A stretch of 64,000 nt of DNA from a virus: positions 1 through 64,000 of IMG/VR virus record IMGVR_UViG_3300018080_008375; one strand, 5' to 3'. Positions 3,182 through 39,205 of this stretch are shown here, one piece after another (the first letter of the stretch is position 1; each line of letters begins with the position of its first letter). Both the position numbers and the translations under genes were made by a program. The notes under the pieces were generated by a model. That model was not told the DNA's origin. It saw only the letters and a program-made list of their open reading frames with translations, and ran no database searches.

Positions 3182-3253
3182 GGTCCTGTCGTCTAGCGGC
3201 TAGGATACAAGGTCCTCAACCTTGAGACGGGAGTTCGATTCTCCCCAGGGTCA
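3182..3253 (+). tRNA. tRNA-Glu(CTC), C at position 33
   Basis: Acceptor GGTCCTG/CAGGGTC; anticodon arm CAAGG-TCCTCAA-CCTTG; T loop TTCGATT. Confidence 0.9.
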
Positions 3254-3330
3254 CAATAAAAACGGCTATCTATCAGTATTCTACCATTATGTTGCGTCAC
3301 ATTAAACGGTGGTTCGACGGAGGTAGAATA

Positions 3331-3996
3331 ATGAGAAAAAAGTGGACCGATAATCAGCTGGTCAAAGCAGTAGCTTCTGGATGCTGTATGGCCGACGTAC
3401 TTAGGGCTCTTAATATAGTACGGTCCGGAAATACAATGCGTCTTGTACGCAAGCACATTGACAGGCTTGGTTTAAAAACATGTCATTGGGTTCGACCAAG
3501 AAGAAAGGCTGTAAGAATATCCGACGTTCCCATAGCCGATATGTTTGTGATAAACAGCGAGTTTTCCAAGGAATCGATACGCAGGCGGGTTAAAAAGGAA
3601 AATTTGCTCCCATACGAATGCTTTGAATGCGAGTTAATAGAATGGCGCGGAAGCAAAATATCGCTCCAGTTGGATCATATTAATGGCAACAGGCGCGACA
3701 ACAGGCTGCAGAACCTTAGATGGTTATGTCCGAATTGTCATAGTCTGACGCCGACATGGGGAACTAAGTCAAGAAAGAAGGAAGATAAATATTGTGTCGA
3801 CTGCGGTTGTAAAATATCGCATAGGTCGACACGATGTCGCATTTGCGCCAATAGGTGTTTTCCAAATCAGACGAAGATAGAGTGGCCTCCTACTAGTGAG
3901 CTCGTCAGGATGGTCAAGGAAACATCATTTGTTGCCGTCGCACGCAAGCTGGGCGTATCAGATAACGCTGTTAGGAAGAGAATAAAGAATCACTAG
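3331..3996 (+). CDS. HNH homing endonuclease
   Basis: LQLDHINGNRRDNRLQNLRWLCPNCHS motif, Zn ribbon and C-terminal HTH; AT-rich; its stop overlaps the next tRNA. Confidence 0.9.
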   Translation: MRKKWTDNQLVKAVASGCCMADVLRALNIVRSGNTMRLVRKHIDRLGLKTCHWVRPRRKAVRISDVPIADMFVINSEFSKESIRRRVKKENLLPYECFECELIEWRGSKISLQLDHINGNRRDNRLQNLRWLCPNCHSLTPTWGTKSRKKEDKYCVDCGCKISHRSTRCRICANRCFPNQTKIEWPPTSELVRMVKETSFVAVARKLGVSDNAVRKRIKNH

Positions 3997-4067
3997 GGTC
4001 CGTAGTGTCAATGTAGCATCCCGGCCTCTTAAGCCGGTGGGTGGAAGTTCAAGTCTTCCCGGGCCCA
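3996..4067 (+). tRNA. tRNA-Lys(CTT)
   Basis: Acceptor GGGTCCG/CGGGCCC; anticodon arm CCGGC-CTCTTAA-GCCGG. Confidence 0.9.
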
Positions 4068-4068
4068 C

Positions 4069-4314
4069 ATGGAAAGACGATTCGTATGCCCGAACTGCAA
4101 GTGCGTCGTCCAGCCTCCCGTGGCGGAGTTCTCGGGGTGGGTGGCGAGAAGGGGCGGAATGAACTCCAAGCATGTTTTCGAGGTGTATCCGGACCCGTCA
4201 GGTCAGTTCTTTTCCATATGCTGGGATTATGGAGAAGACAGGCGCGGGTGGGGCGACACGCCGGAAGCCGCAGCCATGAGCCTCAAGCTCGGTCTGGAAG
4301 AAGGGCGGTTTTGA
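4069..4314 (+). CDS. hypothetical Zn-ribbon protein
   Basis: CPNC motif; starts right after the tRNA. Confidence 0.6.
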   Translation: MERRFVCPNCKCVVQPPVAEFSGWVARRGGMNSKHVFEVYPDPSGQFFSICWDYGEDRRGWGDTPEAAAMSLKLGLEEGRF

Positions 4315-4315
4315 C

Positions 4316-4522
4316 ATGATGGCAAAAAAGAGCAAGGACTTTCTGAAGCACTGGTTCAATGTCGGGAAGGACAGCGGAAAGAGCACGATGTTCCTGGTGC
4401 GGTCCACCCTGACCGGGAACGTCATGGCCTTCTACGACGACGAGCCGGGCGGGAGCTTTGAGACAATCGGCAGGTACGACCTGTCCAAGCCGTTCGGAAA
4501 GCAAGATGGGAAGGCGATCTGA
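4316..4522 (+). CDS. hypothetical protein, paralog of 5745-5987
   Basis: Shared pattern WFN.G...G...M.LVR ... YDL...F..Q. Confidence 0.65.
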   Translation: MMAKKSKDFLKHWFNVGKDSGKSTMFLVRSTLTGNVMAFYDDEPGGSFETIGRYDLSKPFGKQDGKAI

Positions 4523-5027
4523 CCGCGACAGGCGCGCCATGAGGGATGCCATGGGGCACTCTTTCAGGCGCAAGAGGCACGCATCCAAAAGGCTGAAGGA
4601 GAGGGCGGGTCCGTCCGTGGACTTCGACGCCTTCCGCAAGATGGTGCTGGACGACCGGGAGTTCGAGTTCGTGGTCAAGGCTGGCGGTGGATCCGATCTA
4701 TGCTACGCCGAATACGAGGGCAAGGACGTCTACTTCATCATGAAGCACGGGAGCGGCGGCAGGAGCAGGGAGATAGCGACCGTGCTGACAAAGGCGATGG
4801 CGACCGAAAGCTTCCCTAAGGCGTTTGTACACATAACGCATCCCCATCTTGAGATGCTGAAGCGCGCAAGGGAGACGGCGGGGAGAAACAGGCGGCTGGA
4901 GAGCCTGAACAGCAACCTTCTGGAAGAGAAAAAGGATCTGCAGCGCAAAATAAGCCAAATGGCAAACGAGCGCCACCGCCTGAAAGAGCTGATAGACGGC
5001 ATAAGGGTGTGGTTTAGTTTGAAATAG
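4506..5027 (+). CDS. hypothetical protein with C-terminal coiled coil
   Basis: ORF overlaps the previous stop; HA..RL.ER...IATVLT pattern is weakly RelE-like. Confidence 0.6.
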   Translation: MGRRSDRDRRAMRDAMGHSFRRKRHASKRLKERAGPSVDFDAFRKMVLDDREFEFVVKAGGGSDLCYAEYEGKDVYFIMKHGSGGRSREIATVLTKAMATESFPKAFVHITHPHLEMLKRARETAGRNRRLESLNSNLLEEKKDLQRKISQMANERHRLKELIDGIRVWFSLK

Positions 5028-5102
5028 TCGGGTGTAGCTCAATCGGAAGAGCGGCGGGCTCTGACCCCGCGTCTGTTGGAAGTTCGAACCCTCCCACCCG
5101 AG
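5028..5102 (+). tRNA. tRNA-Gln(CTG)
   Basis: Acceptor TCGGGTG/CACCCGA with G73; anticodon arm GCGGG-CTCTGAC-CCCGC. Confidence 0.88.
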
Positions 5103-37318: not shown

Positions 37319-37329
37319 TCGGAGGAAAG

Positions 37330-37587
37330 ATGGACGAAAACAGAATGGGAAATTACAACCGGGAGAAGAGTAGCCCGAGCGCCAAACAGTTGCTGCGGCA
37401 GCTGAGAGAGATGAAAACGCTGTTCAGGCGCGAGAGGGACACGGTGCGCAAGAACATCGCCCTGCTGACGGCGAACATGGGAGAGTTCGCCGTCGCCATT
37501 GACGCCGCCCTGGAAAAGACCAAAGGCAGCCTGGAAGAGCTGCGGGCGTACAGGAAGGCGATGGAGCGGAGGTCGGACAGGAAATGA
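37330..37587 (+). CDS. coiled-coil hypothetical protein
   Basis: GGAGG RBS. Confidence 0.6.
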   Translation: MDENRMGNYNREKSSPSAKQLLRQLREMKTLFRRERDTVRKNIALLTANMGEFAVAIDAALEKTKGSLEELRAYRKAMERRSDRK

Positions 37588-37624
37588 CTTGGGACTACCA
37601 GCACTGGAACTAGGGAGATGCGAT

Positions 37625-38128
37625 ATGGAGCGGACACTGCTCTTGAGCCAATCGTACGAGCCGATTGCGACCATATCCTGGCAGAGGGCCATATGCCTGC
37701 TGATGCTGGGCAAGGTGGAGATAGTCGAGGAGTACGACCGCAGCGTGCGCTCCGTGTCGGTGGTTTTCAAGATGCCGGCCGTCGTGCGCCTGGTGAATGC
37801 TTTCAGGCGCCACAAGAAGGGCGTCAAGTTCAGCAAGCAGAATGTTTTTGCGCGGGACAGGTGGAAATGCCAGTATTGCGGCATCAAGAAACCAGCAACT
37901 GAACTCACATATGACCATGTTGTTCCAAGGTCTCGAGGTGGCAAGACATGCTGGGAGAACATTGTCACGTCGTGCTCGGAATGTAATTCCAAGAAGGGCA
38001 ACAGGACTCCGCAGCAGGCCGGAATGAGGCTGAAGAGGGTTCCGGTCAGGCCTGACTGGGTGCCCGTGTTCGCCGTGCAGGTGAGCCGCGACATGCCCGA
38101 TGCGTGGCGCAACTACTGCTGGAGTTAG
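37625..38128 (+). CDS. HNH endonuclease (McrA-like HNH_5 type)
   Basis: TLLLSQSYEP...FARDRWKCQYCG...TYDHVVPRSRGG..WENIVTSCSECN. Confidence 0.9.
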   Translation: MERTLLLSQSYEPIATISWQRAICLLMLGKVEIVEEYDRSVRSVSVVFKMPAVVRLVNAFRRHKKGVKFSKQNVFARDRWKCQYCGIKKPATELTYDHVVPRSRGGKTCWENIVTSCSECNSKKGNRTPQQAGMRLKRVPVRPDWVPVFAVQVSRDMPDAWRNYCWS

Positions 38129-38196
38129 TTTTTTACTAGCATTTTCTACCAATATTCCTGTATGTACACACATATGGAATATTGGAGGTTCGAATC

Positions 38197-38931
38197 GTGA
38201 AGGGTCAAACCAAGTATGAAAAGGAAATTGTAGAAAATGCTGTTCAAAACGCGCGATCTTTAAGAGAAGCCATTGAGAATCTTGGTCTAAAACCCAACAA
38301 TGGCAACTACAGGTTTATTTCTGCAAAAGTAAGGCTGTACGGCATATCCATAGAGCATTTTGTAAGACACGCAACGCGTGGGTGTACGGCACACAATAGC
38401 CAAGCAATAAGGAATGTTCGAAACCAGTTGCGATGGACGGATGATGAGTTGTTCAGAAAATCGTCTGTATATGTTTCTGGTTCGAGACTGAGAAAACGTT
38501 TGTTGGAAAAGGGGTGGGAATACAAGTGTGCCATATGCGGGCATGATCCCATATGGAACGGGAAAAAGCTTACTTTACAAGTAGATCATATCAACGGAGA
38601 TAGCATTGATAACAGGTTGGAAAATCTGAGGTTTTTGTGTCCGAACTGCCATTCCCAAACGGCAACTTTCGGGAACAACAAAAATCGTGCTACAAAGCCT
38701 GAGAAAACCTGTAACATATGTGGTCGACCTGTCCATTACAAAAACAAAAGCGGACGGTGTCGAGGCTGTAGCAACAGACTTAGTGGTTGTCAGCGGCGTG
38801 GGCAAAACACAAAAATAAAATGGCCGCCGCACGCACGGCTTTTGAAAATGGTCGAAAAAACTTCATTTTCGGCTGTCGGAAGAAAGCTTGGTGTTTCTGA
38901 TAATGCAGTTCGCAAGCATCTTAAAATATGA
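38197..38931 (+). CDS. HNH homing endonuclease, paralog of 3331-3996
   Basis: LQVDHINGDSIDNRLENLRFLCPNCHSQT; shared tail RKLGVSDNAVRK. Confidence 0.9.
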   Translation: MKGQTKYEKEIVENAVQNARSLREAIENLGLKPNNGNYRFISAKVRLYGISIEHFVRHATRGCTAHNSQAIRNVRNQLRWTDDELFRKSSVYVSGSRLRKRLLEKGWEYKCAICGHDPIWNGKKLTLQVDHINGDSIDNRLENLRFLCPNCHSQTATFGNNKNRATKPEKTCNICGRPVHYKNKSGRCRGCSNRLSGCQRRGQNTKIKWPPHARLLKMVEKTSFSAVGRKLGVSDNAVRKHLKI

Positions 38932-38933
38932 GA

Positions 38934-39007
38934 CGAGGAGTGGCGCAGTCTGATAGCGCATCTGGTTTGGGACCAGAGGGTCGCAGGTTTGAATCCTGTC
39001 TCCTCGA
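38934..39007 (+). tRNA. tRNA-Pro(TGG)
   Basis: Acceptor CGAGGAG/CTCCTCG; anticodon arm TCTGG-TTTGGGA-CCAGA. Confidence 0.9.
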
Positions 39008-39124
39008 CAGATAGGGTCCTGGCGCGGACCCTGGCGCAGTTTGCGTACATGGCTTTTTGCGGAGCTAGCCTGCCGGGGCGTTGTACCGGATCGTTTCATC
39101 CGCCCATGCTTTCATACGCGCCAT

Positions 39125-39205
39125 GGAGGGTGCCGCCAAGGTGGCAACGCCGGCTTGAACCCGGTGGGGGCTTGGTCGCTCGGGGTTCGATTCCTCCACC
39201 CTCCG
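39125..39205 (+). tRNA. tRNA-Ser(TGA)
   Basis: Acceptor GGAGGGT/ACCCTCC with G73; anticodon arm GCCGG-CTTGAAC-CCGGT; variable arm present. Confidence 0.83.

Follow-up and report, generated by a model that had tools for sequence, protein, structure and literature searches.

Introduction

ROOL, GOLLD and the YrlA-type Y RNAs, the last of which have long terminal stems, are structured non-coding RNAs that cluster with the transfer RNA (tRNA) genes of phages, and bacteriophage T4 possesses two small RNAs of approximately 120-140 nucleotides (nt), RNAC and RNAD, that are matured by tRNA-processing enzymes. In bacteria, RNase P removes the 5' leaders of tRNA precursors, and RNase Z cuts those precursors that lack CCA after the discriminator. 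Lalaouna et al. reportedly found in 2015 that two spacer fragments of Escherichia coli, 3'ETS-leuZ and the metZ-metW spacer, persist after processing and act as sponges. The tRNA-spacer sponges of E. coli are approximately 50 nt in length, are bound by Hfq and were defined by their pairing with known small RNAs (sRNAs). RNAC and RNAD, or species 1 and 2, are non-tRNA members of the T4 tRNA cluster and are co-transcribed with it, but their role is still unknown (PMC3014915). Theta ribozymes, which are minimal ribozymes of the hepatitis delta virus (HDV)-like kind, are found within a few nt of phage tRNA 3' ends, where they are proposed to process the 3' trailer (PMC10879173). The non-tRNA content of the tRNA islands of huge phages is almost unstudied. 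Here we analyse eight non-coding gaps beside the tRNA genes of one such island, in the first 64 kb (hereafter, the window) of the IMG/VR virus record IMGVR_UViG_3300018080_008375. The record has 99,821 bases and is estimated to be 25% complete, from which the genome of the source phage should be about 400 kb.

A preliminary description of this DNA had presented the eight gaps as a series of structured RNAs that normal tRNA processing would release. The explanation we favour, tentatively and with slightly less than even confidence, is that they are transcribed spacers of several kinds, all non-coding and some of them leaky terminators, which are excised when the tRNAs are processed.

Results

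Structure in the eight gaps

All eight stretches lie where the preliminary description had placed them, each touching one or more tRNA genes on the same strand, and its view that they hold no plausible gene was borne out: overlapping open reading frames (ORFs) score between -0.23 and +0.10 log-odds per codon, against 0.21 +/- 0.06 for real genes. Folding was evaluated against dinucleotide shuffles (expressed as z-scores) and against 3193 native windows of 140 nt, ranked after regression on G+C, and pair probabilities (P) were taken from the partition function. The G+C-rich folding that had been described for the whole set is significant relative to shuffles in five gaps, namely 14400-14573 (z = -3.3), 19785-19949 (z = -2.8), 20241-20334 (z = -5.6), 20712-20817 (z = -2.9) and 29040-29273 (z = -3.1), and is not significant in 8051-8190 (z = -0.75), 20490-20621 (z = -0.73) and 39013-39123 (z = -1.5). 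Among the native windows, only the spacers beginning at 19783, which ranks first, and at 20241, which ranks fourth, stand out; 20712 lies at 2.2%, 14399 at 5.9% and the remaining four gaps at 12-30%. Taken as a class, gaps bordering a tRNA have more structure than intergenic gaps elsewhere in the contig (mean z = -1.56 versus -0.65; Mann-Whitney p = 0.01).

The paired ends attributed to these gaps are strongly predicted as closing stems in five of them (Table 1). What had been taken for multi-way junctions in 19783 and 39009 are long irregular hairpins. Partition-function ensembles are well defined for 19783, 20241, 20712 and 39009, and poorly defined for 8045. The recurrent layout that had been proposed, a hairpin followed by a closed domain, can be seen in the minimum free energy (MFE) folds of 8045, 19783, 20489 and 39009, but two of these four fold no better than shuffles and in two the 'junction' is a hairpin. 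By these measures, some members of the set have real structure, whereas in the others it is unproven. There is no statistical support for selected structure in 20489-20625, in 39009-39123 or in the interior of 8045-8216.

Packing of the tRNA array

On the plus strand, between positions 3182 and 39208, ARAGORN identifies 31 tRNAs and one transfer-messenger RNA (tmRNA), with one more tRNA at 55776; these calls are borne out by Rfam, in which no further family reaches its gathering score within the 64 kb. A tRNA-Asn with a 51-nt insert, at 5618-5741, was seen once the intron search was enabled, and tRNAs for Cys, Ile and Tyr were not found within the fragment. Genes and tRNAs lie on one strand and are packed so tightly that long non-coding spacers are exceptional: the 103 junctions in 3182-39208 have a median of 10 nt and 71 of them measure 35 nt or less, while only 17 reach 100 nt or more, 15 of which touch a tRNA. 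Many ORFs have a Shine-Dalgarno (SD) sequence and start codon 1-35 nt 3' of a tRNA end, and the stop codons of several others abut or overlap a tRNA 5' end. This succession of ORF, tRNA and ORF implies that mRNAs are matured by excision of the tRNAs. Encoded CCA is missing from at least 28 of 32 tRNAs, which are preceded by A/T-rich leaders such as TTTAT, ATGATAAT, ATAAAT and TTTTTT.

Relatedness and identity of the gaps

Compared with each other and with the rest of the 99.8 kb, the gaps have no sequence similarity, and no closing stalk is common to them; they do not form a single series of related RNAs. Two of them do come after the two tRNA-Val genes, as had been observed; paralogy of these spacers was rejected, for they are unrelated though the tRNA-Val genes themselves are 72% identical. 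Likewise, TGCCGCC(C)/(G)GGCGGCA pairs are present at 19828/19941 and 29126/29171, but this stem was discarded as a family mark of the spacers at 19783 and 29041. The heptamer occurs 36 times in the window, counting both strands, against 15.6 +/- 3.9 expected, and so its being shared means little. We also rejected the idea of a protective hairpin after every tRNA, given that 45-mers downstream of tRNAs were no stabler than random positions in three phages (p = 0.58-0.91). Complementarity between the gaps and the remainder of the contig does not exceed what chance would give (E 0.2-0.8) and no Ro60-type partner is encoded, which leaves the decoy or modulator role that had been suggested for the gaps without target or partner in this DNA.

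At gathering score, Rfam 15 returned only tRNA and tmRNA hits across the 64 kb and no family in any of the eight gaps, in agreement with the earlier view that none is RNase P, signal recognition particle RNA, 6S, 5S or a riboswitch. When thresholds were relaxed to E <= 5 (positions 1-41000) and E <= 10 (19700-20900), the gaps gave weak sub-threshold noise only. The ROOL and GOLLD models had no match in Rfam. A YrlA or Y RNA identity was rejected, the model scoring no higher than 23 bits, where its gathering score is 69, and doing so over true tRNAs only; a TROVE/Ro60 gene is absent from this fragment and from its relatives G006 and G007 (described below). An HDV-like theta ribozyme was rejected as well, since a loose descriptor found 23 of 468 starts near tRNA ends (4.9%) and 139 of 2340 at random positions (5.9%). 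The HDV-type models of Rfam had no match, the nested double pseudoknot of this class, P1-P2-P3-P1.1-P4 with a catalytic C in J4/2, cannot be drawn for the gaps, and the descriptor yielded no convincing candidate.

Nor are the eight gaps tRNAs by the measures applied here. A scan for T arms located 11370-11386 and 20214-20230 and none in the gaps, while a profile hidden Markov model (HMM) constructed from the phage's own tRNAs matched 11308-11401, 12301-12381, 20030-20178 and 20179-20240, and none of the eight. Six anticodon-arm-like hairpins were seen against approximately three expected, which is about the chance rate; hairpins of this type lie at 14524-14540 and 8107-8123. ARAGORN at low thresholds was too noisy for use.

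The layout of an intrinsic terminator is found in 20282-20338, where the hairpin is followed by T6, and in part at 20786-20815 with its T-rich tail and at 8170-8197. No hairpin-plus-T-run layout occurs in the spacers at 14399, 19783, 20489, 29041 or 39009. Canonical terminators of a hairpin and T6 exist elsewhere in the array, for instance at 11066-11087.

The individual elements are collected in Table 1, which includes two tRNA-like elements and one structured gap that were absent from the earlier list. One word of 20241-20338, GGCGGATTTTTT, recurs 3' of a tRNA-Arg at 11202-11213.

Table 1. Non-coding and tRNA-like elements of the array, with their predicted folds (P, pair probability; z, relative to dinucleotide shuffles).
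Element	Strand	Setting	Predicted fold	Folding statistics	3' end and remarks
8045-8216	+	between tRNA-Val(UAC) and M42 peptidase gene	5' hairpin 8051-8073 alone robust (P 0.97); interior ill-defined (mean P of MFE pairs 0.53)	z -0.1 to -0.75, not significant	T5 run near 8193-8197, then SD and ATG at 8217; weak terminator-like site called at 8170-8186
14399-14578	+	between tRNA-Gln(UUG) and tRNA-Pro(GGG)	branched domain closed by 8-bp stem 14400-14407/14566-14573 (P 0.98); contains 6-bp hairpin 14408-14422 and anticodon-arm-like hairpin 14519-14545	z -3.3/-3.4 on + strand, -1.8 on - strand	3' tail TTTAT
19783-19956	+	between tRNA-Val(GAC) and tRNA-Ala(CGC)	12-bp hairpin 19785-19813, small UUCG-capped hairpin 19814-19823, then ~120-nt rod 19828-19948 closed by TGCCGCCC/GGGCGGCA (19828-19835/19941-19948, P 0.90)	z -3.12, 0/200 shuffles as good; mean pair probability 0.88	3' tail ATGATAAT
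20030-20178 and 20179-20240	+	two tRNA-like elements; absent from the earlier list	T arms and acceptor-like stems	z -2.0 for 20030-20178	tRNA profile HMM E 0.0036 and 0.51
20241-20338	+	upstream of tRNA-Ala(GGC)	perfect 11-bp hairpin 20241-20277, then long G+C-rich hairpin 20282-20334	z -5.70, 0/200 shuffles as good; centroid equals MFE	3' arm of 20282-20334 enters T6 run 20333-20338, first two T stem-paired; T-run abuts tRNA-Ala(GGC)
20489-20625	+	between tRNA-His and tRNA-Ser(CGA)	short 5' hairpin and three-way domain closed by 20512-20522/20610-20620	z -0.73/-0.81, not significant despite closing stem (20512-20517/20615-20620) P 0.94	3' tail ATAAAT
20712-20838	+	after tRNA-Ser(CGA)	three consecutive hairpins, the third at 20786-20815; loops of hairpins 1 and 2 complementary over 6-7 nt (20728-20734 with 20765-20771)	mean pair probability 0.86	T-rich tail, SD, ATG at 20841
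29041-29293	+	between ORF stop (29040) and tRNA-Leu(GAG)	branched fold closed by 29045-29052/29260-29267 (P 0.95)	z -3.1 on + strand, -5.0 for reverse complement; 15% of native windows	no minus-strand gene nearby
39009-39123	+	between tRNA-Pro(UGG) and tRNA-Ser(UGA)	7-bp hairpin 39013-39032, then long irregular hairpin with closing stem 39033-39037/39118-39122 (P 1.0)	z -1.5, not significant; ensemble very well defined (P 0.97, diversity 0.03 per nt)	closing stem abuts next tRNA
21801-22045	+	structured non-coding gap between tRNA-Asp and cryptic tRNA-Ser(GCU); missing from the earlier list	15-bp hairpin directly 3' of tRNA-Asp	z -2.23, 4/200 shuffles as good	

Relatives and conservation

No near relative came out of 50,697 phage records searched by megablast and tblastn, and sensitive blastn of the gaps in phages gave nothing, or one 28-nt chance match. 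In a set of 5.8 billion proteins, two array proteins proved to be orphans, each matching only itself, on two contigs of which the longer has 254,806 bases; the best non-self match of the nucleoside hydrolase is 71% identical and lies on contigs of at most 4.2 kb. Scans of IMG/VR with three array proteins had no match. Five relatives are found through Pol III alpha, at approximately 55% identity, on fragments that carry no tRNAs. The ADP-ribosylglycohydrolase leads to two megaphages of 340 and 442 kb (approximately 52% identity), G006 and G007, in which a tRNA array is situated upstream of the ADP-ribosylglycohydrolase gene, as it is in this phage. The gene content of these arrays has almost nothing in common with that of the present one, a difference that shows rapid turnover.

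Neither blastn nor nhmmer found a match to the gaps in G006 or G007, and covariance models made from 19783-19956 and 14399-14578 had no match in five megaphages, comprising these two nearest complete relatives and three others. In a metagenome scan anchored on the 3' half of tRNA-Val(GAC), similarity ended at the tRNA in all 48 loci, and an anchored Val-spacer-Ala pattern had no match in IMG/VR. As a control for power, the same nhmmer procedure detected in G006/G007 only 17 of the 39 tRNA-type elements of the window, so that missing homologs are weak evidence against conservation. The relatives do have structured non-coding tRNA spacers of their own, of 197 nt in G006 (z = -3.0) and 85 nt in G007 (z = -3.2), with sequences that differ from those of the gaps; a spacer in the relatives that holds a small conserved ORF has z = +0.45. 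The relatives also encode a nucleotidyltransferase of the CCA-adding type.

Directly after tRNA-Val(UAC), both G006 (L017 1406-1658) and G007 (L019, reverse strand) have a small conserved ORF, MFGEP..DVEGECN..., which is absent from the window; the spacer 8045-8216 occupies that position here.

Unusual tRNAs and neighbouring genes

The tRNA-Asn at 5618-5741 has a homolog in G006 (L017 5885-6007; nhmmer E 2e-16) that includes the insert, and in at least eight tRNAs of the relatives G006/G007 the region of the anticodon loop carries an insert of 21-55 nt. Short conserved tRNA inserts look like a trait of this clade. A gene for RtcB is absent from this record, from G006 and from G007. Two cryptic tRNAs of the Ser type, at 22046-22131 (loop CTGCTAA, anticodon GCU) and 22525-22611 (TTGGAAG, GGA), share 84% identity, and in each the D region is enlarged; both were missed by default ARAGORN and by Rfam at E <= 1, and they align with the other tRNA-Ser genes of the window. 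Directly 3' of tRNA-Trp, and not called by tRNA finders, there is a 94-nt element (11308-11401) with a terminal stem of 12-13 bp and a perfect T arm, GCGG-TTCGAAT-CCGC.

Protein genes of the fragment include those for Pol III alpha, GyrB, RecA, SbcC-type and SbcD-type (calcineurin-like phosphoesterase) proteins and ThyX, as well as an M42 peptidase, an aminotransferase, a nucleoside hydrolase, a Thg1-like enzyme and HNH endonucleases, of which two, at 3289-3996 and 38182-38931, adjoin tRNAs. The nucleoside hydrolase (34964-35863) adjoins the tmRNA and shares approximately 60% identity with proteins from Myxococcota (Nannocystaceae, Plesiocystis) and from cyanobacteria, a similarity that may hint at a host or a gene donor. 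Just past the window, at 65948-66032 of the record, an 85-nt intergenic hairpin (z = -5.6) is probably a strong terminator.

Discussion

If the gaps are a mixed set of transcribed spacers, as we tentatively prefer, they would lie in a long transcription unit on one strand, in which tRNAs punctuate the protein genes. RNase P would cut each tRNA at its 5' end and, because almost no tRNA here encodes CCA, an RNase Z-type enzyme would be expected to cut after the discriminator base. A spacer bounded by two tRNAs, which is the situation at 14399, 19783, 20241 (together with the tRNA-like pair), 20489 and 39009, would then be released as one compact fragment. When folded, the structured cores leave 0-8 unpaired nt at either predicted fragment end. 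Release by tRNA processing, which the preliminary description supposed for all of the gaps, is plausible for these five spacers. Three elements, of which 20241-20338 plainly ends in a G+C-rich hairpin and T-run and 20712-20838 and 8045-8216 do so less plainly, would most likely act as leaky intrinsic terminators or as stabilisers of 3' ends. Leaky terminators would separate the yield of a tRNA sub-cluster from that of whatever lies downstream, functioning as attenuators that set the ratio between them, and a stabilising role for the 3' end would follow the RNase P cut. Such terminators would have to be leaky, as the next tRNA or SD sequence abuts them and there is no room for a promoter. On present evidence, 19783-19956 and 14399-14578 appear to be structured spacer RNAs, either by-products or cis-acting modules and not a designed trans-acting family; they are the best candidates for free-standing structured RNAs. 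The stretch 29041-29293 beats its shuffles but is a weaker candidate, left unassigned here, because a tRNA flanks it on one side only, it does not stand out among native windows and its reverse complement has the better fold.

Several considerations weigh against this explanation. Co-transcription, cleavage sites and termination are all deduced, and the leakiness of the terminators is an assumption; scans for sigma-70-type promoters and for terminators showed no excess over shuffles; and the better fold of the reverse complement of 29041-29293 is not accounted for. Moreover, the rod of 19783-19956 and the loop-loop complement of 20712-20838, which by our estimate would arise by chance in about 1% of cases after correction, hint at something more than passive spacers.

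The well-folded spacers 19783-19956, 14399-14578, 20241-20338 and 20712-20838 might instead be genes for stable, trans-acting sRNAs matured by tRNA processing and, as possible analogues of T4 RNAC and RNAD, serve as decoys or sponges, whether of host defence nucleases directed at tRNA, of RNA-binding proteins or of the translation apparatus. Their location inside a tRNA operon, as with the T4 RNAs (PMC3014915), their compact folds with minimal tails and their extreme z-scores, with 19783 ranking 1/3193 among native windows, argue for such genes, as do a genome that is otherwise tightly packed and the presence of several non-decoding tRNA-like RNAs in the same array. The arrangement of 20241-20338 as hairpin, linker, terminator hairpin and U-tail is typical of Hfq-type sRNAs, by resemblance only. 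We think this unlikely all the same, given that no sequence or covariance-model homolog was found in the two nearest complete relatives and the three other megaphages, that there are no paralogs, that complementarity within the contig is no greater than chance, that neither a Ro60/TROVE nor an RtcB partner is encoded and that three of the eight elements fold at shuffle level. More ambitiously, the whole array could be imagined as a production line of lineage-specific, nuclease-resistant sRNAs, cut out by RNase P and RNase Z and acting in trans, along with the tRNA-like RNAs, on host defence nucleases or the translation apparatus, with the same four spacers as its best candidates; this we regard as quite unlikely. 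The 'polycistronic ncRNA delivery system' of the preliminary description, that is, an array delivering non-coding RNAs, is unsupported, the elements being unrelated, three of them at shuffle level and three terminator-like.

A contrary explanation would see in the gaps what gene turnover has left behind in a fluid tRNA island, as decayed remnants of tRNAs or ORFs or as insertion scars near HNH genes, without selected function and with any folding due to G+C-rich composition and chance. The three gaps that do not rise above shuffles, and the six of eight that are unremarkable among native windows, are consistent with decay of this kind; so too are the almost complete difference in array gene content between relatives, the HNH genes that flank tRNAs (3289-3996 and 38182-38931) and the existence of degenerate tRNA-like elements within it. 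Yet the phage tolerates scarcely any other non-coding DNA, with its median junction of 10 nt, structure is significantly greater where a gap adjoins a tRNA than in other gaps, the most structured windows of the 64 kb are those at 19783 and 20241, and no tRNA remnants were detected in the eight gaps, all of which makes wholesale decay a doubtful account. Least probable, and in our judgement very improbable, is that the gaps are tRNA or tRNA-like genes remodelled to an extreme degree, such as the Cys, Ile or Tyr acceptors with large insertions. Those three tRNAs were indeed not found, the clade has many tRNAs with inserts of 21-55 nt, default tools miss the cryptic tRNAs or tRNA-like elements at 22046-22131, 22525-22611, 11308-11401 and 20030-20240, and anticodon-arm-like hairpins occur at 14524-14540 and 8107-8123. 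However, such hairpins are near their chance rate, no T arm exists in any of the eight gaps, the HMM of the phage's own tRNAs matches none of them, the Rfam tRNA model finds nothing at E <= 10 and, as the fragment covers only 25% of the genome, the missing tRNAs may lie elsewhere.

Should the spacers prove to be stable RNAs, tRNA operons would constitute a general phage device for making sRNAs that need no promoters or terminators of their own, and the fifty-year-old puzzle of T4 RNAC and RNAD would gain many parallels. Should they be only leaky terminators and by-products, they would show how a phage sets the output of tRNA relative to mRNA within a single tRNA-punctuated transcript. In either case the elements can be ranked, with 19783-19956 and 20241-20338 first, 14399-14578 and 20712-20838 next, and three elements that may be dropped.

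Set beside the systems already described, the present case is weakly supported and adds no new principle. ROOL and GOLLD, at 500-800 nt, have no match to the gaps. Theta ribozymes sit, like the gaps, right by tRNA 3' ends, but are unlike them in having a nested double pseudoknot. With intrinsic terminators, 20282-20338, 20786-20815 and the end of 8045-8216 share a hairpin and a T-run or T-rich tail, although the stems here are longer and more branched than is typical and a T-run is missing from five of the eight gaps. The tRNA-spacer sponges of E. coli are released by normal processing, as would be the case here, but no targets or Hfq sites are identifiable in the present spacers. The T4 RNAs offer the nearest comparison: as with RNAC and RNAD, all eight gaps lie between or beside tRNA genes of the same strand. 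There is no sequence relationship, however, and whereas both T4 RNAs belong to a single compact cluster, this phage has up to nine unrelated spacers, predicted from sequence alone, dispersed among ORFs over 36 kb.

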